Of a DNA stretch of 64,000 nucleotides, positions 42,217 through 51,453 are shown piece by piece (within the stretch, counting starts at the first letter, position 1; each line of letters begins with the position of its first letter). A program made the translations under genes and the position numbers. The notes under the pieces are model-generated. The model saw only the letters and a list, made by a program, of their open reading frames with translations. It made no database searches and was not told the origin of the DNA. Origin of the DNA: Cyanobacteria bacterium auto_48_18 (GTDB taxonomy: Bacteria; Cyanobacteriota; Vampirovibrionia; Obscuribacterales; Obscuribacteraceae); the NCBI GenBank assembly GCA_036170915.1, contig JAVHQC010000006.1:160001-224000 (forward strand). Direction: 5' to 3'.

Positions 42217-43002
42217 ATGTCGGAAAAACAAAATGAAAACCTGGGTAACTTTGAGCTGAGTAAGCAGGGTGTGGTTACCAGACGTGACGTATTAATGATG
42301 GGAGCCGTTGCCGCCACGTCGCTTTCAACGAATGCACTTTCGGCAGCGGCTGCGCCTGCGGCAGCAGCGGTCGTTACCAAAGATCCATATACGGCCAAAG
42401 ACTTTAGCGCGCTAGTGACAAAGAATATGGATGGCCTGAGCGGCAAGCAAATAGAACCTCACTTGAAGCTCTACAAAGGATACGTCGGCAAGGCCAATGA
42501 AATTTATAATTTGCTCAAGACCGTCGATTTGACTTCAGCCAATGCTTCCTATTCGCCTTTGCGAGAACTCTTGATGGAGCAAAGTTTTGCTGTCAACGGC
42601 ATGATCTATCACGAATTCTACTTCGGCAATTTGGGTGGTAGCGGCGGCGACCCCAGTGGTGAGGTGAAAGCAGCCCTTGATGAGCGCTTTGGCTCGACAG
42701 GCAAATTTATGGATTTTCTCAAAGCATCAGGCAAATCGATGCGTGGTTGGGTTGTAGTGGGCTATAACACTCGCGGCAATCATATTGATACTTTTGGTCT
42801 CGATACACACAACATGTGGTCACCGCAGAACGTGGTGCCTTTGCTTGTTCTCGATGTTTATGAACATGCCTATATGATTGATTATGGTATTGATCGCCCT
42901 AAGTATCTCGATGCCTTTGCTAAAAATCTTGACTGGCAAGTGGTGGCAAAACGTCTTGAAGCAACTAAGAAGCTTATCAGTGGCGGCGACAGCACCACTT
43001 AA
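42217..43002 (+). CDS. Fe/Mn superoxide dismutase-family protein (ChrC/SodF-like) with Tat signal
   Basis: TRRDVL Tat motif; HLKLYKGY, HEFYF, DVYEHAY ligand motifs. Confidence 0.88.
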   Translation: MSEKQNENLGNFELSKQGVVTRRDVLMMGAVAATSLSTNALSAAAAPAAAAVVTKDPYTAKDFSALVTKNMDGLSGKQIEPHLKLYKGYVGKANEIYNLLKTVDLTSANASYSPLRELLMEQSFAVNGMIYHEFYFGNLGGSGGDPSGEVKAALDERFGSTGKFMDFLKASGKSMRGWVVVGYNTRGNHIDTFGLDTHNMWSPQNVVPLLVLDVYEHAYMIDYGIDRPKYLDAFAKNLDWQVVAKRLEATKKLISGGDSTT

Positions 43003-44052: not shown

Positions 44053-45408
44053 TTAGTTATCTGCGGGCGCCATACCAAGTTTAGCGTCGGCCACAGGACC
44101 TTCCATAACTATATGCATAACGCCGTCAGGGTCTTTTTCGCGCCGCTCAATTAATGCCTGCATGGTTTTACTGTCGTCGAGCATCACTTGCTCTTTGCCT
44201 TGTGTTTCGTAAGCTTTGTCTAGTTTCATGGCACCCAGTTCAGGCTTAACGGCAAAGACATGGAACTTATCTGGTTTGTCGTTCACTTTTAATGGAAACG
44301 GGCCCAACCTGTCAATTTTGCCAATATCACCTTTGTTAATCAAAGCCAGGTTATCGAAATTTTCTGGCGGATAACAACGATAAACTCGTACTTCTTTAGC
44401 GGCCGGATTGCTTTTGATGCGCTCGGCTAAAGTAGTTTTGGCCTGACCAGGCGACACTTCACCAAATACGTAAACATAGCAGCTGCTGCGCGGTTTGATC
44501 ACAATTTCGCATTTTTCATTGAGCATATAACCATTTTTCGGCCGATTGAATTGAACATTAATAGGCTCAATGGCAGGCTTTTCAACTTTGTGAGCATCTA
44601 CTTCTTTTCCACCCAGATAGAATGCTGCGGCCACAAAGGCAGTGAGAAATGCCAGTATAAATGATGCCACCAGTGGTAGTGTCGAGGGGCTAGTGTTGGG
44701 CTCTTCCACAATTGAATTGGCCTGGACGCCGAGCTCTTTTAGAGCATCTATAGAAAGGCATAGTCGAATGGATGTGGTCGGTAGATTTAACCCTGGTAGC
44801 GAAGCAGTATCACCACAGTGCATTGCCACCACTGTATATTCATCAAAAATTGCCGAGCCTGAGTCTCCAGGCGACAAAGCCAGATCATGTAACAGGTGGA
44901 AATTGTCTTGCTTGCGCAGCGGTCCAAGTAAGCGGCCCATTTGCGCCAGCGGGTTAAGTGAGCTGAATTGCCCTAAATGAGTAGGGAAACGCACCGCAGT
45001 AAGTGACAACTGAGTTGGTAAATTGCGGTCGTAAGCAATCGGTAGAGGAGTCGCTTCTGACTCGGGGAAAGACAAATCGACGCTAAGCAGGGCGGCATCG
45101 AATTTGACTAAATGATTGAGCTGAGGGTCGCGCATAAAGTTCGGATGTAACTTAATTTCGTTAATGGCATATTGACTGCCTGATTTAGGAAACCGCACTG
45201 CCAGTGCCGGCAGGTCGTCAAGATGGCCGTCCACCACATGACCGCAAGTAATCAATTTGTTGAAACCGACCAGCCAGGCCTGACCCAAGACCTGCTCTTG
45301 TTTTCCGTTTTCGCTGATTTCCACTTTGATGATGTGGGCAAGGGCGTCGCCGTAGGCTTCTATATCAAGAGGAGCCATTGATTGACTTAAATTTTGGCCA
45401 GTTGCCAC
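44053..45408 (-). CDS. Trypsin-like serine protease + TM + DUF4384-like C-terminal domain
   Basis: TCGH, FDAALL and GDSGS catalytic triad; single TM; Y-x-L-N-E...CYVYVF...YP pattern. Confidence 0.8.
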   Translation of the reverse strand: MATGQNLSQSMAPLDIEAYGDALAHIIKVEISENGKQEQVLGQAWLVGFNKLITCGHVVDGHLDDLPALAVRFPKSGSQYAINEIKLHPNFMRDPQLNHLVKFDAALLSVDLSFPESEATPLPIAYDRNLPTQLSLTAVRFPTHLGQFSSLNPLAQMGRLLGPLRKQDNFHLLHDLALSPGDSGSAIFDEYTVVAMHCGDTASLPGLNLPTTSIRLCLSIDALKELGVQANSIVEEPNTSPSTLPLVASFILAFLTAFVAAAFYLGGKEVDAHKVEKPAIEPINVQFNRPKNGYMLNEKCEIVIKPRSSCYVYVFGEVSPGQAKTTLAERIKSNPAAKEVRVYRCYPPENFDNLALINKGDIGKIDRLGPFPLKVNDKPDKFHVFAVKPELGAMKLDKAYETQGKEQVMLDDSKTMQALIERREKDPDGVMHIVMEGPVADAKLGMAPADN

Positions 45409-45490
45409 TTTTTACGTTCCAGTCTTAACTACGTCGTCTAATCTTATACAATGGTAGGGCTTCAGCTCATCAAATCGATGCTCATTTTAA

Positions 45491-45937
45491 GTGATGAATC
45501 CCGCCAGCAATCCCAAACAAAATACTGTACCTGTATCGCCGTCACCAAAGGGTAACATAGCGCGCAGTCTCCGGTCGTACTGGTGGATACCAGTCTCTTA
45601 TTCTGTTCCATACTTAATTGTTCACTCCATTGGTTTAGGTCAGCCCGGTGTTAGTACCGCTGCCAACACAGAGCTGACAATGTTGCGATCTCATTACAGT
45701 GGGCTTATAGGCCTGGCGGTTGCTACTGCTATATTCTCGTTGTGGCGTCTGGACTGCACTTTTGGGGCCCGCCAGCTTCTACATTTGTCACGAGATTCAC
45801 AGGCGAAAGCTCTGGTGCATATACTGGGAATGGCTTTGTGGGTATGCTGGGTAGGTATTAGTGTAGTAGCCTGTATGGCCTATGATCAGGTCCATGAGCT
45901 GGTCCCTAACCTGCCAGGACTGGGCGCACCTATTTAG
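45491..45937 (+). CDS. Hypothetical membrane protein (about 3 TM)
   Basis: ORF fills the gap; hydrophobic segments; no family recognised. Confidence 0.55.
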   Translation: MMNPASNPKQNTVPVSPSPKGNIARSLRSYWWIPVSYSVPYLIVHSIGLGQPGVSTAANTELTMLRSHYSGLIGLAVATAIFSLWRLDCTFGARQLLHLSRDSQAKALVHILGMALWVCWVGISVVACMAYDQVHELVPNLPGLGAPI

Positions 45938-45973
45938 ATTTCTCATCCAGATATTCAAGTATTCAGGTAACAA

Positions 45974-47422
45974 TTGCTGACCAGCCCTACCGAATTACAA
46001 GAGATTCTCACCCTGGCGCCCGAATGGCAGTCAGTGGTCGAAAGCGTGGCTGCGGCAAAAGACGTAAAAACTGTCAGCTCCTATCAACTTTTTGAGAGAC
46101 TTGGTGCCAAGGCCATTTACATGAAGGCCGCGGCTCTCAGTAATCAGAAAAGAAGCGAGTTTGAGAGATTGCTGCGTGATCATTATTATCAGCCGATCAT
46201 TGCCAAGATGTTCAGTAACAACCAGAACCTGAAGCGTTTCTGGGCTCAGCGCAAGCATCCCTTTGACTGGCAAAAAGGCCAGGCTGTTTCAATGTCGGTG
46301 GAGCTATCCACAAAAATGGAAGGGGTGCTGGACAGGCATTTGGCTAATAAAAGCGCTGATGGCTTTAAGGTTTTGCTACCAGCCTATGTGCAGCGCTCAG
46401 TGCAAAATGCAGTAGTTGATTACATAAAAGATGAGTGGCAGTGGGAAAGAGAAACTCTGCAAGATCTCAATCTTGACCCTGAGCATGAAGACCCGCGCTC
46501 TTGCACCGCTGACGACGTTAAATATGCTCCTGAAAACAAAGCTATATCTGGTGAGCAAGTTTTACAACTGAATCAGTTACGCACTGAACTCAAAGCCATG
46601 CTTGATGATCGCTCTCAGCCCCAAGAAGCTCTTATAGTGGTCGACTGTATGTTCGGCCTGGGCCTGACGCCTAAGTCTAAGAACGGCGAAGAGCTCACTA
46701 TGCGGGAAGTATGTGATTTGCTGGCCATAGCAGGTGAAACTCAAGCTCGTAAAATCGCTCGCTGTCAGGTTCTACTTGACAAAGGCCTTGATTGTATTCG
46801 CGCGCAAGTACGCAAGAATCTGCCAGGAGTAGCCGATTGCTGGCAAGCGGACGTTAACATCAACACTGCCTCAAGGCGCGAACTTTCACATCTGCTCGGT
46901 TTGACCGAAGGAGAAGTAGAGAGACTGCTTGCTAACCGCCAGTATTATTGCCTCAGTGAACTTGTCGAAAACAGTGTAATCAAAGCGCCGAGATTAGATG
47001 ACTTAATCAAACACGGTGCCGTGGCTGCTTTTGTACCGGTGGAAGTCAATTCTTGCACCACTCGTGATCTGATTGATGTGCTTGGTTTCCCTAAAGACAC
47101 GGCTCAGAAATTCGCCACCAAAAGGCCGTTTACTACTTTTGATCAGGCCCTGCGTGACAATTTGCTTAGCGATGCTGTGTTGCAACAGGCAATTAAGCGT
47201 GGCGCAGTACTCAAGCCCCCAAGCACCGGCAGTGAAAGACTTGATCTCAATAACTGCCAGGGCGAAAATTTGGCCGCCCTTGGTTTAGGCGTAGCTATGG
47301 TGCAGCGCATCACTTCCGGTCGGCCTTTTACCACCTGGAACGAGCTGGAAGAGTACTTAGCGCCGGATAATCGCGAATGGTTGATACTGCGTCAAAAAAC
47401 TTGTTTGGGTATTTCCGACTAA
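45974..47422 (+). CDS. Sigma70-like factor fused to three ComEA-type helix-hairpin-helix units
   Basis: Region-2-like AYVQRSVQNAVVDYIK; region-4-like FGLG...GEELTMREVCDLL; HhH starts VNINTAS, VEVNSCT, LDLNNCQ. Confidence 0.65.
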   Translation: MLTSPTELQEILTLAPEWQSVVESVAAAKDVKTVSSYQLFERLGAKAIYMKAAALSNQKRSEFERLLRDHYYQPIIAKMFSNNQNLKRFWAQRKHPFDWQKGQAVSMSVELSTKMEGVLDRHLANKSADGFKVLLPAYVQRSVQNAVVDYIKDEWQWERETLQDLNLDPEHEDPRSCTADDVKYAPENKAISGEQVLQLNQLRTELKAMLDDRSQPQEALIVVDCMFGLGLTPKSKNGEELTMREVCDLLAIAGETQARKIARCQVLLDKGLDCIRAQVRKNLPGVADCWQADVNINTASRRELSHLLGLTEGEVERLLANRQYYCLSELVENSVIKAPRLDDLIKHGAVAAFVPVEVNSCTTRDLIDVLGFPKDTAQKFATKRPFTTFDQALRDNLLSDAVLQQAIKRGAVLKPPSTGSERLDLNNCQGENLAALGLGVAMVQRITSGRPFTTWNELEEYLAPDNREWLILRQKTCLGISD

Positions 47423-47494
47423 TTTTTGTGCCCACGTCGTTGATGACAATGTGCAGATCAAGTCAAAACTATTTAGAGCCACCGGAGACGCCTG

Positions 47495-48736
47495 ATGTCT
47501 AGCTTAATCAATCAGAATCAACACGGTCGAATCGCTCTCAGTGCCGAAGTGGTGCGAATGGCTCAAATTCGAGCCAACCGCCAGGGTGTGCAGTTCAGGC
47601 AAGAATTGGCCAGGCTGGTGGCTGAAGAAGCAATTATGGCTTTAGATTATGATCTTGGCTTGCTGATTGAAAGTAATGCTTTGAGCCAATCTGATGCCAT
47701 GGCTGCGGCTCTCGGCGTCAACGACCTTGTGGTAAATGGCCAGCGCATGGACATTCGTGCTCTCGATGAAGACGGCGAAGTCAGTGTTGCCAGGGCTCTT
47801 GTGGGCTCGCAATATTTGAGTCTGGGCAGCTTGATTGTCGAACTGGACGGCGTCAGTGGTGGAAGCATCGTCGGCCATGTAAGCTCCGGTGCCTGGCTCA
47901 AGGCCGAAGACGGTTTGCGCGACGCTGAGACTATTCGTATGCCAGTTGAGATTAAGGCCGATTTTGATCTGAGCCAAACCATAGTGGCACTTGCTCAAAA
48001 AGCACCCTTTAAGCTGCCGGCTGTAGCTAAGTTGGCTAATTTTGAAAACGACGTTAACGACCTTTTCAACAACAAGGGCCGCCTGATTGCTTCTCGTCAG
48101 AAACAAATTTTTTCTTACCTCTGCGCTCACTGGTCTGATGAAATGCTGGCGCAAGTAGAAGCTATCGGCTGTAAATTGCCTGCTGCCAAAGTCACACGAG
48201 TTTTGTTTGCTGCCGGGCGCTGGCATGCTACATCTGAGCGGCTGGCCGACAAACTTGCTCTGCGCTTTAAAAAGCTTTCCCGTGACCAAATACTCGCTCA
48301 AATTTTGACTGTGGGTGAAAAACTGGGAGGGGAGATTAAGGCTCCTGCTTTCAGGCATGAATTGCTCACTGGCCTGGCTGCTTCTGAGCTGGCCATGAAT
48401 GACGGCATTCAGGCCAAAGCCGCACAAGCGGTCATGGCTAAAGTTATGAGTGGTGCCAGCGCGGTGGAAGTGGTGAAATCTCTGGTGAAAAACGCGGTGG
48501 CAGTGGATTTAGCCCTTGCTATCAAGAGTAAGCGTCAGGCTGCAGCAGGCTTCATGGCCGCCACTGCCGAAGAAATTGGCATGGCTTTTCAACAACTGGC
48601 ACTACAGCCTGCCTATGCCACCCATAGCAGCGGTGATTCTGGAGTAGATTCCATTAATGAAGCGCTGGCTTTGCTTCAAGCTACTGACATGGCCGACATT
48701 ATTGCTGCCTGTGATCAGGAAATGGCGCAGTTCTAG
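47495..48736 (+). CDS. Hypothetical protein; N-terminus resembles DUF1822 family
   Basis: NDLVVNGQRMDIR...LIVELD...IVGHV pattern; lies right after the sigma-like gene; GGAG SD. Confidence 0.5.
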   Translation: MSSLINQNQHGRIALSAEVVRMAQIRANRQGVQFRQELARLVAEEAIMALDYDLGLLIESNALSQSDAMAAALGVNDLVVNGQRMDIRALDEDGEVSVARALVGSQYLSLGSLIVELDGVSGGSIVGHVSSGAWLKAEDGLRDAETIRMPVEIKADFDLSQTIVALAQKAPFKLPAVAKLANFENDVNDLFNNKGRLIASRQKQIFSYLCAHWSDEMLAQVEAIGCKLPAAKVTRVLFAAGRWHATSERLADKLALRFKKLSRDQILAQILTVGEKLGGEIKAPAFRHELLTGLAASELAMNDGIQAKAAQAVMAKVMSGASAVEVVKSLVKNAVAVDLALAIKSKRQAAAGFMAATAEEIGMAFQQLALQPAYATHSSGDSGVDSINEALALLQATDMADIIAACDQEMAQF

Positions 48737-48780
48737 ATTGCAAATTTCCTGTTTGGCAATAAGTTCGGTACAATCGGCAC

Positions 48781-49551
48781 ATGCAAGCGAGCACCAGTGT
48801 AGTTGATTGTAGTGGTTGTGGAGAGCAAAACAGCTCTGACATGTCATTTTGCCTCAAGTGCGGCAAAGTGCTCTCTTCGGCCGTACAGGAACAACGCGAT
48901 ATTCGCGGAGTTAAAAAGCGGCAGTGCAAAAGTTGTGGCCGGGCTGATGAACTCAATCATCGATATTGCATTTTTTGTGGTGCCGACATTAAGGCATTCG
49001 TTGCCAAAGCTGCCAACCCTGAAGCCTTAAATAGATTTACCAGTGAGCTTTCGCAGCTAGCGGCCGACCCAGATCCCAATGAAGCGCTGCAAGTTGCTAG
49101 AGATCAAAGTAATTCTGCGGCCAGTAATTATCACGCACCAGTAGTCTATAAAAATAAGGCTGCCACAAAACCATCATATGGTGCGCTGGTTGTGCAATTG
49201 TTCTTGCTTCTAGGATTGGCTTCAGGAGCTGGTCTTGCCTATTTCTTCAAGGGCCCGGCCTTACTGCAGGCTTACAATTTAGTCACAGGAAATAGCTTCA
49301 AAGATGGACTTTTAATTTTTACCGAACAGCCCACTGTCAACATTGTCACCGAATCGCAAGATCGCAAACAGTACACTATTGGTCAAACCAAAAATGGCAG
49401 CATGGCCATATCTGGAATCGATCCAGGAGTTCAGCGTATTACTTTTTCGCTGCCTGATGCCTCAATCATTGAAGCGGTAACTTTGCTTCCATCAAAATTA
49501 AATATGCTTGGATACGATCAAAAAGTTGATGTCAACGCTGGTAAACACTGA
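48781..49551 (+). CDS. Double zinc-ribbon protein with one TM and a beta-rich extracytoplasmic domain
   Basis: CSGC-x10-CLKC and CKSC-x10-CIFC; TM LVVQLFLLLGLASGAGLAYFF. Confidence 0.8.
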   Translation: MQASTSVVDCSGCGEQNSSDMSFCLKCGKVLSSAVQEQRDIRGVKKRQCKSCGRADELNHRYCIFCGADIKAFVAKAANPEALNRFTSELSQLAADPDPNEALQVARDQSNSAASNYHAPVVYKNKAATKPSYGALVVQLFLLLGLASGAGLAYFFKGPALLQAYNLVTGNSFKDGLLIFTEQPTVNIVTESQDRKQYTIGQTKNGSMAISGIDPGVQRITFSLPDASIIEAVTLLPSKLNMLGYDQKVDVNAGKH

Positions 49552-50795
49552 TGACCGCCAAAATTAATTGTCCTACCTGCCAGCGCTCTTTGCCCGCCGC
49601 ATCAAAGTTTTGCGGGTTTGATGGTACCGATTTATCACTGGCTGCCGAAGGCCAGGCATCACGCAAAGTCTGCTCCGTATGTGGTCGCTTTTATCCTGGT
49701 TATGCGCAATTTTGTGCTTTTGATCGCAGCTCATTGCAGATAATGAAAACACAAAGAGAGTTGGCGCAAGAAAGCGAATCGCCTTCTGATCAGGCTTTAG
49801 AGCGCTATAGCGGCACACAGTCAAACGAAACTGTAGTGGTGCCCGTGCTGCCACCGGCGACCTCAACTGCACAAATTGCTGCTGATGACAGATTGTTTTC
49901 GCCTGCTGATTCCAACATGCCTTATTCAGAGTTGGTTGGTAAAACCATCGACAAAAAATATTTGATTCAGTCTGTACTGGGTGAAGGCGGCATGGCCGTT
50001 GTCTATCGCGCTCATCAAATTCAGATGGAGCGCACGGTTGTGATCAAAGTTATGCAAGGCTGGTTGCTTTCCAACCGCAATTCGGTAGAGAGATTTGAGC
50101 GCGAGTGCAAACTCACTGCCAAACTCAATCATCCAAATATTGTCTCAGTCTACGACGTTGGTTTAATTAACGGCAAAGAACCATATTTGGTGATGGAGTA
50201 TATCAAAGGTGAATCACTGGCAGACAAGATTCACAACTCGGGCGCGTTGCCCTATGCCACCACCGCCAATATCATCATTCAAATTTGCCGCGGCTTGCAA
50301 GAAGCGCATACGTCCGGCATTATCCACCGCGATTTGAAACCTGACAACGTTTTGCTGCAACATAAATCAGATCGGCCTGACTGGGTAAAAATCGTAGACT
50401 TCGGTATTTCAAACTTTGTGCACGGTAGCAAGAAGCTGACTAAAACAGGACGCATGGTAGGCACACCTGAATATATTGCTCCAGAACAATTAAAAGATCG
50501 CCCGATTGATATGCGGACAGATCTATACGGCCTCGGCATTATGATGTTTGAAATGTTGGCTGGCCGTGTGCCTTTCGATGGCGAAAGCGCCGAATCGATT
50601 TTGATGAAACATTTGCTTGAAGATCCGCCCCAGATGGCTGAAATTCGTCCAGAATTGGCTGAGGGAAATCTTTTCCAACCAATAGTCGACAAGCTCTTGA
50701 AGAAAAACCCAGACGAGCGCTATCAAACCGCCACGGAATTGCGGCTTGATGTGGAACATGCATTAAACGCCGTTTTACTGAAGAAAAACACTTAA
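49551..50795 (+). CDS. Hanks-type Ser/Thr protein kinase with N-terminal zinc-ribbon-like motifs
   Basis: GEGGMAVV, IK, HRDLKPDN, DFG, GTPEYIAPE; CPTC..CGFD and CSVC..CAFD; TGATG overlap with the upstream gene. Confidence 0.93.
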   Translation: MTAKINCPTCQRSLPAASKFCGFDGTDLSLAAEGQASRKVCSVCGRFYPGYAQFCAFDRSSLQIMKTQRELAQESESPSDQALERYSGTQSNETVVVPVLPPATSTAQIAADDRLFSPADSNMPYSELVGKTIDKKYLIQSVLGEGGMAVVYRAHQIQMERTVVIKVMQGWLLSNRNSVERFERECKLTAKLNHPNIVSVYDVGLINGKEPYLVMEYIKGESLADKIHNSGALPYATTANIIIQICRGLQEAHTSGIIHRDLKPDNVLLQHKSDRPDWVKIVDFGISNFVHGSKKLTKTGRMVGTPEYIAPEQLKDRPIDMRTDLYGLGIMMFEMLAGRVPFDGESAESILMKHLLEDPPQMAEIRPELAEGNLFQPIVDKLLKKNPDERYQTATELRLDVEHALNAVLLKKNT

Positions 50796-50847
50796 TTAAG
50801 TGTGGTTTCAGACTTATTCTCGTGTTGTCTTTATCTAAACTGGTGGC

Positions 50848-51453
50848 ATGCGCCGAACTTTTATCAAAATCTGCAGCGCGCTTTTACTACCGCCGCTGCT
50901 GATTTCAGCTTACGCACTGTGGTGGGGAATCGTCTATCGTCTGCCCCGCTCAGCCGACAAAGTAGTGGACCTGCGTACAAATAAAGCAAGCTCTCAAGGG
51001 GCCCGTCGCATATTTTTTTGTGCCGGCCTCGCCAATAATCCGCACGGGTTTCCTGGACATGCTTATGTAGTTTGGTCGAAAAATTTAGCTGCCAGTGTAG
51101 CTGTAAGCGCCGGGGAAGCCAATTTTAAAGATTGCGAAACCCTTGGCTATTGTCCTCATGATTTCTGGAGTATCGTTCCATCTGTTTATACTGCAGTGCC
51201 TGGGGTTGTGGACGACCGCGCCTCCAGCGGTAACGATCGCAATGTCGAGCGGCTCATAGTGCTGGTTGACGATGCTGCTTTCGAGCGCTCAAGAGAGGCC
51301 TGCCGACGGTGGGATGCCACCAATTTTAGGACCGGCAGCCGTGATTGCTGCGCTTTCATTGATTTTGTCGCAACTGAAATTGGACTGGCTGTGCCCAGGG
51401 CCCAGTTTAGCTATCCACATGACCATATTCTCAAGCTTAAGACTCTAAATTGA
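50848..51453 (+). CDS. Hypothetical membrane-anchored protein, possibly permuted papain-like hydrolase
   Basis: N-terminal TM; PGHAYV and RDCCAF in His-before-Cys order. Confidence 0.5.
   Translation: MRRTFIKICSALLLPPLLISAYALWWGIVYRLPRSADKVVDLRTNKASSQGARRIFFCAGLANNPHGFPGHAYVVWSKNLAASVAVSAGEANFKDCETLGYCPHDFWSIVPSVYTAVPGVVDDRASSGNDRNVERLIVLVDDAAFERSREACRRWDATNFRTGSRDCCAFIDFVATEIGLAVPRAQFSYPHDHILKLKTLN

Follow-up and report, generated by a model that had tools for sequence, protein, structure and literature searches.

The closely spaced genes at positions 44053..51453 of the window (the whole 64,000-nucleotide stretch analyzed here) raise the question of whether they form a single cascade leading from the membrane to transcription, as the first-pass annotation had proposed. 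All seven open reading frames of the region were found at their claimed coordinates, with intergenic gaps, in order, of 82 bp (between the divergent trypsin and small membrane protein genes), 36, 72, 44, -1 and 52 bp, the negative value being a one-base overlap between the genes for the Zn-ribbon transmembrane (TM) protein and the kinase. Pfam matches among the window proteins comprise Trypsin_2, HHH_3, DZR, and Pkinase combined with DZR. Most of the gene run is a conserved module of the Obscuribacteraceae, which are non-photosynthetic relatives of cyanobacteria: the sigma gene adjoins the gene for a 413-aa partner in 52 of 52 related loci (24 genera), and the trypsin gene is divergent from sigma in 51 of the 52 (23/24 genera), so that the synteny by which the earlier proposal was to be judged is present. 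With its protease, candidate inhibitor, sigma factor, kinase pair and common promoter, the set probably serves to pass signals from the cell envelope on to a small number of genes whose products are exported.

The sigma factor (45974..47422, plus strand, 482 aa) is a divergent ECF-type sigma followed by three ComEA-like helix-hairpin-helix (HhH) domains, with sigma2 at about residues 35-165, an acidic linker, sigma4 at about 190-288, and HhH domains at 293-352, 354-415 and 420-480. The fusion of a sigma70-like and an HhH part, first read from the sequence, is upheld by the predicted structure and by fold searches, not by the sigma models of Pfam and NCBIfam, neither of which matched the window copy. 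No homologue passed the Pfam cut-off for Sigma70_r2 or r4, and 7 of 73 matched Sigma70_r2 weakly (best E 0.037), while HHH_3 is present in 73/73; source annotations name these proteins ComE-like DNA uptake protein, GspK or hypothetical. In the AlphaFold model (pLDDT 88), VIA-align matches were mostly sigma2 and sigma4 domains, spanning residues 34-286, and included SigL sigma4 (Z 8.6, rmsd 2.6, 80 aligned) and ShbA sigma2 (Z 8.7, rmsd 7.0, 113 aligned), as well as the ComEA HhH domain (Z 8.6, rmsd 1.8, 61 aligned); the best Foldseek matches were likewise sigma factors (E 0.05-0.4). The model has sigma2 and sigma4 folds without sigma3, as in ECF (group 4) sigma70 factors. The gene is single-copy and was found in 82 of 96 Obscuribacteraceae genomes, but in none of 204 genomes from the rest of the class.

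Residues of regions 2.3-2.4 and 4.2 (Tyr138, Asn145, Asp149, Arg259, Arg263) are present in 53/53 loci, and Ser106 in region 2.2 is invariant in 53/53 loci and 73/73 homologues, with Glu/Asp110 and Lys114 kept. In the preferred register, set by eye, region 2.2 reads Q-A-[VIL]-S-x-x-V-E, with Val, Ile or Leu at motif position 3 in 47/53 and Ser at position 4, as against DxxDxxQE, the usual core-binding motif of ECF factors (PMC13147305); moving the register by four residues keeps one acid and aligns an invariant Lys with the Glu of the motif. As neither acid of DxxDxxQE is present in the preferred register, binding of core polymerase by the unmodified sigma is uncertain. The HhH tail probably adds non-specific contacts to DNA or protein, its role being the least constrained of all.

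An ECF-like bipartite promoter (47415..47444, plus strand) lies upstream of the partner gene and overlaps the sigma stop codon; its elements are CTAA at 47419-47422, a T-tract, and GT at 47439-47440. The motif CTAA-N16-GT precedes the partner gene in 53/53 loci, in six of which it lies off the stop codon. In a held-out test it was found ahead of 36 of 43 genes for soluble secreted DUF4384 proteins (17/18 genera) and 14 of 22 secreted genes behind the kinase, compared with 2 of 370 unrelated genes in the held-out control. Off-locus hydrolase-DUF4384 genes carry the motif in 12 of 25 cases, versus 1 of 5 for hydrolase-only paralogues. It does not precede the receptor genes, nor the sigma gene (0/53), so that, by motif evidence, sigma is not autoregulated. 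Genome-wide, the motif is not enriched (21 matches versus 16 shuffled matches at score 16), and 31 genomes gave 59 matches versus 41 in the control; no shared RNA structure was found at the promoter region in the five loci folded. Of the three target genes at the locus, two have been lost in the lineage of the window.

The partner (47495..48736, plus strand), a soluble 413-aa protein and candidate anti-sigma factor, is predicted to consist of an N-terminal PD-(D/E)xK-fold domain akin to the DUF1822 N-terminus, a helical middle part, and an invariant, low-confidence loop at Pro372-Ser378; the model has a pLDDT of 85, falling below 50 at residues 373-379. Pfam gave no match to the window copy. 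After re-ranking, the best 10 fold matches all had the PD-(D/E)xK (restriction-type nuclease) fold, with I-Ssp6803I at Z 8.1 (rmsd 3.2, 116 aligned) and NhoI, Hjc, PvuII and DpnI at Z 4.8-5.8. Its description as DUF1822-like stands for the N-terminal domain, which profile comparison identifies as homologous to the DUF1822 N-terminus through a transitive link only, and fails at the PF08852 cut-off, which none of 35 partner homologues and no protein of the host genome passes. The link runs through a family, f6, of DUF1822-N proteins that adjoin an ECF sigma and bear a TonB_C end and an anti-sigma-domain-like segment: the partner profile matches f6 proteins in 15/15 loci (E 1e-8 to 5e-4; hhalign 81.5%), and f6 proteins pass the PF08852 cut-off (hhalign 95.9%), whereas direct comparison of the partner with cyanobacterial DUF1822 gives a weak match (E 0.03 and 0.05).

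The gene position, directly behind a sigma-type gene and with a protease nearby, is also that of DUF1822 genes; of the 19 cyanobacterial DUF1822 loci scanned, 12 have a CHAT protease downstream and one has a trypsin there. The f6 segment matches an anti-sigma-domain (ASD) profile of 31 sequences (hhalign 51%, E 1.6e-4), and a PDB sequence search with this segment returned no anti-sigma factor among its matches. The partner itself gave E 0.36 against the ASD profile and E 0.015 against the f6 segment, the latter comparable to the values of unrelated helical windows (0.022-0.027). No significant profile link joins the sigma factor to f6 or cyanobacterial sigmas (E 0.024-0.1). The promoters in f6 nevertheless follow the pattern of the present locus and so favor a common logic: the DUF1822-N gene is preceded by a GGAA-N16-GT promoter in 12/15 and the sigma gene by an extended -10 element in 15/15.

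The candidate receptor protease (44053..45408, minus strand) has an N-terminal trypsin fold predicted to be cytoplasmic, one TM helix at about residues 244-262 and a DUF4384-like outer domain. This agrees with its earlier description as a trypsin-TM-extracytoplasmic protein: Trypsin_2 matches at E 6e-9, the triad is intact and there is one TM segment. Among homologues, His57/Asp104/Ser183 are invariant in 51/51 sequences and a single TM segment is found in 50/51; 15 of 20 match DUF4384 (two at cut-off), and the window copy does not. The likely S1 pocket residue, by inferred numbering, is Ala, Pro or Gly rather than Asp, and specificity for Lys/Arg is therefore unlikely. Trypsin-like/DUF4384 paralogues also occur elsewhere without sigma.

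The remaining conserved genes encode a double Zn-ribbon TM protein (48781..49551, plus strand; DZR, one TM helix and an outer beta domain) and a soluble Hanks-type Ser/Thr kinase with a double Zn-ribbon (49551..50795, plus strand), which overlaps the preceding stop codon; domain content and translational overlap thus agree with what had been noticed at first. The kinase (Pkinase, E 6e-55) has the Lys, Glu, HRDxKxxN, DFG, activation-loop Thr and APE motifs in 42/42 sequences, with Lys166, Glu185, Asp261, Asn266 and Asp283 invariant and the six Zn cysteines in 41/42; its neighbor has one TM segment in 38/41. We infer that the TM protein supplies the membrane part of a receptor kinase that is split over two genes. 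The pair is linked but separable: it is at the locus in 41/52 cases, lies away from it in four genera (2.8 Mb off in one closed chromosome), and has shifted together in 5/5 genomes tested where it is non-adjacent. The host genome contains 88 kinase-like tblastn matches.

Two genes fall outside this core. The small membrane protein (45491..45937, plus strand; no Pfam family at cut-off) is an accessory, present in 31/52 loci and 9/24 genera; of 30 homologues, nine have the three hydrophobic segments first assigned to it, 15 have two and six have one. The ORF at 50848..51453 (plus strand), TM-anchored and without a Pfam match, had been called papain-like, a reading whose only basis is a His...Cys motif recognized visually in four sequences. 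It occupies this position in 1/52 related loci and is a recent insertion; a homologue lies on the opposite strand in two other loci, and the promoter motif precedes 0/4 such genes. In its place relatives have a gene for a secreted protein of 340 aa and one for a TPR-CHAT protein, the latter gene following the kinase in 11/24 genera; within 44053-51453 Pfam detected no CHAT/caspase gene.

The idea of a single cascade is thereby narrowed. The seven genes are not one unit, the papain-like and small membrane protein genes being sporadic and the kinase pair movable, with a linkage near background. What remains is that the trypsin and kinase arms are tied to sigma by a shared promoter and by joint absence: in sigma-less genomes, which represent one or two lineages only, the trypsin, kinase and soluble DUF4384 genes were not found (5/5 each), the partner is absent from 4/4 tested, and the Zn-ribbon TM gene was not found in five except for one weak 60-aa match.

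The best explanation, to which we give slightly better than even chances, is a protease-controlled alternative-sigma circuit of the Obscuribacteraceae. Its firmest element is that sigma would read the CTAA-N16-GT promoter, which is likely. With rather less assurance, though still probably, the partner would bind and silence sigma and be induced by it, giving negative feedback. Somewhat short of an even chance is the proposal that the DUF4384 domain receives a signal from the envelope and thereby switches on the trypsin in the cytoplasm, which would cut the partner, most plausibly in the invariant exposed Pro372-Ser378 loop, and free sigma; the induced secreted DUF4384 protein would then tune the receptor. 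More tentatively, the Zn-ribbon TM protein and kinase would act as a split receptor kinase providing a second input, on Ser106 of sigma or Thr376/Ser378 of the partner, and phosphorylation of Ser106 may be a second lock on sigma. A bolder version, which we consider unlikely, has sigma doubly locked, so that it would become active only once the single-pass trypsin receptor has removed its inhibitor and the split Zn-ribbon receptor kinase has phosphorylated Ser106, with its three HhH domains gripping DNA, and extends DUF1822 to a phylum-wide class of protease-cleaved anti-sigma factors. Were it true, DUF1822 anti-sigmas would be a dead restriction-nuclease fold cut at a P-A-(Y/F)-A-x-x-S loop, by CHAT proteases in cyanobacteria and by trypsin in Obscuribacteraceae.

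Among the alternatives to the protease-controlled circuit, the one that survives best, and is still improbable, puts phosphorylation first, as in ECF43: the Zn-ribbon kinase would activate an intrinsically inactive sigma at Ser106, the partner would be merely the first target, and the trypsin would act elsewhere. The preferred region 2.2 register with its invariant Ser, the retained residues 110 and 114, and an intact kinase for which sigma-less genomes yielded no orthologue all fit such a scheme. Yet, as described for EcfP/EcfK, the phospho-Thr occupies motif position 3, whereas Ser106, in the register set by eye, is at position 4 (PMC8999054); the kinase pair is off-locus in four genera, with linkage near background; and kinase-linked ECF groups are reported to have, as a rule, no anti-sigma encoded beside them (10.1101/2019.12.11.873521), while at this locus the closest linkage is that of partner and trypsin.

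A little less plausible again are two or three separate units held together by ancestral gene order, with another ECF sigma reading the promoter and the HhH protein being a sigma-derived DNA-binding protein independent of RNA polymerase. Background synteny is indeed high (neighbor pairs are kept in 94 of 121 co-oriented cases and in 29 of 49 divergent ones, as against 52/52 for the partner and 51/52 for the trypsin), and superoxide dismutase and malic enzyme likewise stay within about 9 kb in 16/24 genera; the host genome has 12 other Pfam-recognized sigma2 domains, region 2.2 is non-canonical, and there are the trypsin-like/DUF4384 paralogues without sigma. One promoter common to all three units, their joint absence, and the invariant or nearly invariant residues of regions 2.3-2.4 and 4.2 speak against this reading, as does the loss of the intact site before the target genes retained in sigma-less genomes (2/2).

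Inducible defense, of the sort proposed for cyanobacterial EACC2 neighborhoods, appears quite improbable; the partner would then be an active PD-(D/E)xK nuclease effector that the protease sets free or sigma induces. The nuclease fold, with Asp77 in 33/35 and Asp86 in 34/35 homologues, the conflict-type neighborhoods described for ECF/DUF1822 genes (PMC8195603) and the TPR-CHAT gene behind the kinase point in this direction, but the catalytic Lys position, assigned by motif, is Arg in 31/35 and Ala in 4/35, the locus is single-copy and stable in 24 genera, and the genes predicted to be its targets encode exported proteins instead of toxins. Chance neighborhood, which holds for the papain-like gene and in part for the small membrane protein gene, is very improbable overall, and locus synteny and promoter counts refute it for sigma, partner and trypsin.

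The first-pass annotation recognized no named system here, but the theme of sigma, DUF1822 and protease is already in print for cyanobacteria: activation by an autopeptidase with a transcriptional output was proposed for EACC2-caspase (CHAT)/ECF sigma/DUF1822 neighborhoods (Kaur et al. 2021, PMC8195603). Common to those neighborhoods and the present locus are an ECF-type sigma, an adjoining gene related to DUF1822, and a protease whose sensor varies and in many cases is extracellular, with TM helices. In the Obscuribacteraceae, however, the trypsin-TM-DUF4384 protein replaces the EACC2-caspase as the constant protease, the sigma carries three HhH domains and has no detectable profile link to the EACC2-neighborhood sigmas, the partner shares the N-terminal domain only, by a transitive link, the locus is single-copy where EACC2 loci are multi-copy and variable, and the present analysis adds a promoter with candidate target genes. 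DUF1822, treated in that account as a TPR protein, is here modelled in its shared domain as a restriction-endonuclease fold. The comparison suggests that the sigma/DUF1822 pairing is older than the split of photosynthetic cyanobacteria and Vampirovibrionia, with sensors differing per lineage.

Triads of protease, anti-sigma and ECF factor have precedents in Csx29-Csx30-CASP-sigma (PMC10028731) and CalpL-CalpT-CalpS (10.1101/2024.05.08.593097), where it was shown, as we propose here, that a protease devoted to the task cuts a soluble inhibitor of an ECF-like sigma in a poorly structured loop; the present core is without CRISPR, SAVED, Lon or CHAT components, and its trigger would be extracytoplasmic. 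The Haliangium SAVED-CHAT/PCaspase/PCc-sigma/PCi/PCk cluster (10.1101/2023.06.23.546230) similarly groups protease, sigma, small regulator and Ser/Thr kinase, but, as described, with cysteine proteases, cyclic oligoadenylate signalling, an inhibitor acting on the protease and no membrane receptors. With ECF43 EcfP/PknT and EcfK/PknS (PMC8999054, PMC13147305) the locus shares a Hanks kinase neighbor (separable here) and, in the preferred register, uncharged residues at the acidic positions of region 2.2 with a conserved hydroxyl residue. That residue, however, is Ser at position 4, where ECF43 has Thr at position 3 (QTTA consensus); the Zn-ribbon kinase is soluble and the TM protein a separate one, the partner gene is constant, the C-terminal extension is large, and no sequence similarity to ECF43 sigmas was found. 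ECF41, ECF42 and ECF238 also fuse a C-terminal module to the sigma2 and sigma4 core (10.1101/2019.12.11.873521); the extensions named there are SnoaL, TPR, Cys-rich, DUF1835 or TM, "helix-hairpin-helix" being absent from the main text, and such groups are said usually to lack an anti-sigma, for which a candidate partner exists here.

A sigma factor invisible to standard annotation now has a testable promoter and candidate targets, and proteolysis and phosphorylation may both converge on it. For DUF1822, a functionally uncharacterized family with several copies in cyanobacteria and a sparse literature, there is now a fold and the hypothesis of a sigma-induced inhibitor cut by a neighboring receptor protease, which is applicable to culturable cyanobacteria. 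Set against the known systems, the proposed circuit is a variant of protease/anti-sigma/ECF regulation, and what is new here is its CTAA-N16-GT promoter.

Re-reading of the window bore out the seven open reading frames between 44053 and 51453, with their strands and gaps, which the first-pass annotation had tentatively joined into a single transmembrane-to-transcription cascade. On the minus strand lies a trypsin-TM-DUF4384 gene (44053..45408), and on the plus strand follow a three-TM gene (45491..45937), a 482-residue sigma-HhH protein (45974..47422; named relatives from Candidatus Obscuribacter and Obscuribacterales), a 413-residue DUF1822-related partner (47495..48736), a Zn-ribbon TM protein (48781..49551), a kinase (49551..50795) and a papain-like ORF (50848..51453). 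GC content across the window is flat (0.45-0.50). Every gene of the locus is single-copy in its own genome except the trypsin, which has weak paralogues, and the kinase, which has 88 tblastn hits; the kinase as a neighbour, taken alone, therefore means little.

The synteny check across related genomes proposed with the annotation was carried out on 52 loci: 12 from close relatives, placed in the window's genus by identity, and 40 chosen for long contigs and genus spread among 82 sigma-matching genomes, together spanning 24 of the 31 genera that have the sigma. The partner stood beside the sigma in all 52 loci and the trypsin in 51, while the Zn-ribbon TM gene and the kinase were each found in 41 (21 of the 24 genera; two of the 11 misses are contig ends), the three-TM gene in 31 (nine genera) and the papain-like gene, at the window's position, in one. 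As a background, adjacent gene pairs in 800 kb from four other genera were checked against the own genome, where 94 of 121 co-oriented pairs and 29 of 49 divergent pairs within 2 kb were also together. Against this control, sigma-partner and sigma-trypsin linkage exceeds background and linkage of the kinase pair does not. We conclude that the locus is a real, family-wide signalling module of the Obscuribacteraceae, with a core of sigma, partner, trypsin and a promoter described below, and that the seven-gene version shrinks accordingly: the papain-like gene is outside the module and the three-TM gene probably so. The Zn-ribbon/kinase pair likely belongs to it but is separable, since the two genes occurred together elsewhere in all five tested genomes with a pair not adjacent to the sigma, in one closed chromosome 2.8 Mb away.

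In relatives, the trypsin is backed by a secreted DUF4384 gene (18 genera), and the kinase by a gene for a secreted 340-residue protein that matches no Pfam family and then by one for a TPR-CHAT protease (locus L003:14932-19389). All three are missing at this place in the window's lineage, where the papain-like ORF sits in place of the latter two. A 'FecR-like' label for the 340-residue protein was dropped, as it was made by eye and Pfam gives nothing. At 42217-43002 lies a Fe/Mn superoxide dismutase gene whose product, judged by eye, has a twin-arginine-like N-terminus; in 16 of the 24 genera a superoxide dismutase and a malic enzyme, both lacking the promoter motif, are found no further than about 9 kb from the sigma. 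In one genus (g14) a TldD/PmbA metallopeptidase pair is inserted between partner and Zn-ribbon gene (L018:3339-7024, L039:12401-16146). Paralogous receptor-like genes with trypsin-like segments, DUF4388, a TM segment and DUF4384 adjoin the sigma locus in three genera (e.g. L033:3865-7561), one of them followed by a DUF4384 gene, and lie elsewhere in the own genome (contigs C34:73230-76807 and C16:140246-142897).

In the window sigma, Pfam and NCBIfam detect the HhH region only, and its homologues carry database names such as 'ComE-like DNA uptake protein', GspK or hypothetical. An AlphaFold model built on an alignment of 73 sequences (pLDDT 88) retrieved sigma factors first in Foldseek, albeit weakly (E 0.05 and above). 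VIA-align matched residues of about 35-165 to sigma2, about 190-288 to sigma4 (SigL, Z 8.6, rmsd 2.6, 80 aligned) and the tail to ComEA-type HhH (Z 8.6, rmsd 1.8). Within regions 2.3-2.4 and 4.2, Tyr138, Gln140, Asn145, Asp149, Thr242, Arg259 and Arg263 are invariant in 53 loci. The ESM Atlas placed the sigma part at 0.93-0.94 to unnamed and sigma-70-named clusters, which serves as a lead only. The gene was found in 82 of 96 other family genomes and in none of 204 other genomes of the class. A sigma-core profile search of 1.84 billion representatives gave 15 hits. Fourteen of them have alignments that start inside the core and resemble members of the family or fragments (two inspected); the outlier, P0135, a repeat protein rich in Lys and Glu, was taken to be a compositional match. 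Nothing meaningful was returned by a PDB sequence search with the core, and profile comparison gave no significant link to the DUF1822-linked sigmas of Cyanobacteria or of f6, another family of the same class.

Within region 2.2, what we take to be the 'QExxxK' consensus can be aligned on Glu/Asp110 and Lys114. This register places Gln103 and Ser106 at the two Asp positions of DxxDxxQE, the acidic region 2.2 motif of ECF sigmas given in PMC13147305; an alternative register, shifted by four, is possible. Ser106 is invariant in 53/53 loci and 73/73 homologues.

The promoter motif is an addition of the present analysis and was absent from the first-pass annotation. Gibbs searches found a strong motif upstream of the partner (13.8 bits vs 8.4 shuffled) and stayed near the shuffled level upstream of sigma (9.4 vs 8.8) and trypsin (9.0 vs 8.4). 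It begins with CTAA, continues with a T-tract and has GT placed exactly 16 bases behind the CTAA; it precedes the partner in all 53 loci (window 47415-47444). A terminator or RNA element is disfavoured by folding z-scores of 0.19, 0.43, -2.3, -2.4 and 0.55, with hairpins in differing places. The TAA of CTAA doubles as the sigma stop codon in 47 loci, which could make the motif a stop-codon artefact; this was ruled out, as the remaining six sites lie off the stop codon and none of 52 partner stops carries the motif.

A matrix trained only on 34 partner sites was then run over positions -300 to +60 around each ORF start of the loci, a score of at least 9 with a spacer of 15-17 counting as positive. 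Positives were obtained for 49/51 partners, 36/43 soluble DUF4384 genes (17/18 genera) and 14/22 genes of the 340-residue protein (6/10 genera), compared with 2/51 trypsins and 2/370 unlabelled genes; no gene for the sigma (53), kinase (47), Zn-ribbon protein (41), dismutase (37) or malic enzyme (31) scored. Some soluble-DUF4384 sites fall within trypsin coding sequence, and codon constraints may play a part there. Away from the locus, the motif core lies upstream of 22/25 members of an alpha/beta-hydrolase-DUF4384 family, 12/25 scoring 9 or more vs 1/5 hydrolase-only paralogues. The own genome encodes a secreted member (C6:102829-104633, minus strand, also delimited as C6:102829-104580) with the motif 24 bases upstream; a homologue of this gene adjoins the sigma locus in one genus (g2). 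Searched genome-wide, the motif was not enriched relative to shuffled sequence or to other spacer lengths close to 16, so the predicted regulon is small. Among 20 off-locus sites fetched, only hydrolase-DUF4384 (two), TPR (two) and 340-residue family (one) genes recurred or were linked to the locus. All 43 soluble DUF4384 proteins have a hydrophobic N-terminus, and export of the target proteins points to envelope or cell-contact sensing.

The partner had been called DUF1822-like, which holds for its N-terminal domain and by a transitive route. None of 35 homologues gave a convincing Pfam match, the ESM Atlas was uninformative (best 0.75), and the direct hhalign comparison with cyanobacterial DUF1822 is weak (E 0.03-0.05). 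In 32 of 48 genomes of f6, a family of small, AT-rich genomes that is probably Gastranaerophilales, the partner profile does match large proteins at their N-terminus, and these proteins exceed the PF08852 cut-off in 35 of 40 f6 genomes; hhalign links partner to f6 at 81.5% and f6 to cyanobacterial DUF1822 at 95.9%. In the structure model (pLDDT 85), the N-terminal alpha/beta domain resembles PD-(D/E)xK nucleases (I-Ssp6803I, Z 8.1, rmsd 3.2, 116 aligned). Two acidic residues of the site are kept and the Lys position is Arg in 31/35 and Ala in 4/35, which makes nuclease activity doubtful. A sigma2-like reading of residues 228-303 (sigma rows Z 4.9-5.6; E 0.034 to the sigma N-terminus) was rejected as noise level for helical bundles, and the segment that corresponds to an anti-sigma-like part of the f6 protein, described below, could not be told from noise. 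Pro372, Thr376, His377 and Ser378, in a loop of low model confidence, are invariant in 35/35; the loop is similar to one that reads 'P-A-F-A-F-R' in short DUF1822 proteins of Cyanobacteria (second hhalign hit, E 0.22) and may be a cleavage or phosphorylation site.

In f6, the DUF1822-N gene is followed by ORFs of 180-200 and 980-1000 residues in 15/15 loci. Scans of four loci found sigma4 in the shorter product and, in the longer one, a double Zn-ribbon along with TPR and, for the most part, AAA hits; in three of the four the DUF1822-N protein ends in TonB_C. The DUF1822-N protein also has a segment like the zinc-free anti-sigma domain (51%, E 1.6e-4), for which a PDB sequence search gave nothing meaningful. 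The conserved three-gene unit (L083-L096, L098) encodes a DUF1822-N/anti-sigma-like/long acidic linker/TonB_C protein, a 190-residue ECF sigma and a double Zn-ribbon-AAA-TPR protein. A GGAA-N16-GT element, identical in spacing to CTAA-N16-GT, precedes the DUF1822-N gene in 12/15 loci (GGAATA in 15/15); the ECF sigma gene has an extended -10 instead (15/15). By their placement, ECF-type promoters are predicted to drive the partner, not the sigma, in both families. Scans of cyanobacterial DUF1822 loci gave a sigma4 hit for the upstream neighbour in 10 of 17 cases; the downstream neighbour was a CHAT protease gene in 12 of 19 cases and a trypsin gene in one. Inspection by eye of the region upstream of 26 cyanobacterial DUF1822 genes showed no comparable promoter motif. 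In one locus from another class of the phylum (L097, G351:C73), the two ORFs flanking DUF1822 are large and AT-rich and lack Pfam hits, and no sigma could be recognised.

Five genomes of three genera (g4, g5 and g8; 88-98% complete) had no detectable sigma, four of them also by profile search. The partner was not found in the four tested. Searches of all five gave only weak partial hits for the trypsin orthologue, nothing beyond generic kinase domains (36-42%) for the Zn-ribbon kinase, a single 60-residue hit (E 0.008) for the Zn-ribbon TM protein and, in a search run without a positive control, nothing for the soluble DUF4384 protein. In a quick RpoB tree, g4 and g8 are nested among sigma-bearing genera (SH-aLRT 86 and 89) and g5 sits at the unresolved base, which suggests that a single loss is likely and that there were no more than two. 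Two of these genomes retain the 340-residue gene; neither has an intact motif near its start, a CTAA-like half site is visible, and one has a loose match further upstream.

A second, stand-alone RNA polymerase beta subunit (1277 residues; plus strand, C35:289171-293004, L235:9171-13004) is encoded outside the window. It is 43% identical to the canonical RpoB (C16:70440-73973), with conserved blocks kept but altered, and no second rpoC1 or rpoC2 was found. It occurs in 29/30 family genomes (one partial) and 0/4 outgroup genomes, within a block conserved in 9/9 genomes viewed: a divergent LuxR-type response regulator, a TPR gene, rpoB2 and three unknown genes, one of which one genome lacks. No mention of it was found in the literature covered, including the available part of PMC8047818. 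Because it also occurs in sigma-less genomes, the model does not include it as a mate for the unusual sigma.

Directly supported are the folds, intact catalytic residues, topology by hydropathy, linkage, promoter and joint absence; hydropathy gives one TM in 50/51 trypsins and 38/41 Zn-ribbon proteins and none in 39/42 kinases and 32/35 partners. In the mechanism that we propose, the sigma would read the promoter motif and induce the partner, which in turn would inhibit it. The trypsin, its protease domain facing the cytoplasm and its DUF4384 domain the exterior, would cut the partner upon an envelope signal, and secreted DUF4384 proteins could feed back on this receptor. The Zn-ribbon TM protein and kinase may form a split receptor kinase that licenses the sigma at Ser106.

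Phosphorylation is described for ECF43 in PMC8999054 and PMC13147305, and a passage of Kaur et al. 2021 (PMC8195603) mentions an ECF sigma and DUF1822 beside EACC2-caspase genes. Searches on DUF1822, ECF sigma C-terminal extensions or HhH, Melainabacteria/Obscuribacter sigmas and EACC2 found no description of the module in a literature that excluded most subscription journals. The main text of the ECF classification (10.1101/2019.12.11.873521), as far as available, does not mention DUF1822, HhH or Melainabacteria; its supplements may bear on novelty. Protease/anti-sigma triads are known from PMC10028731, 10.1101/2024.05.08.593097 and 10.1101/2023.06.23.546230. Compared with such protease/anti-sigma/ECF systems, what is new here is a previously unrecognised sigma architecture together with a defined promoter.
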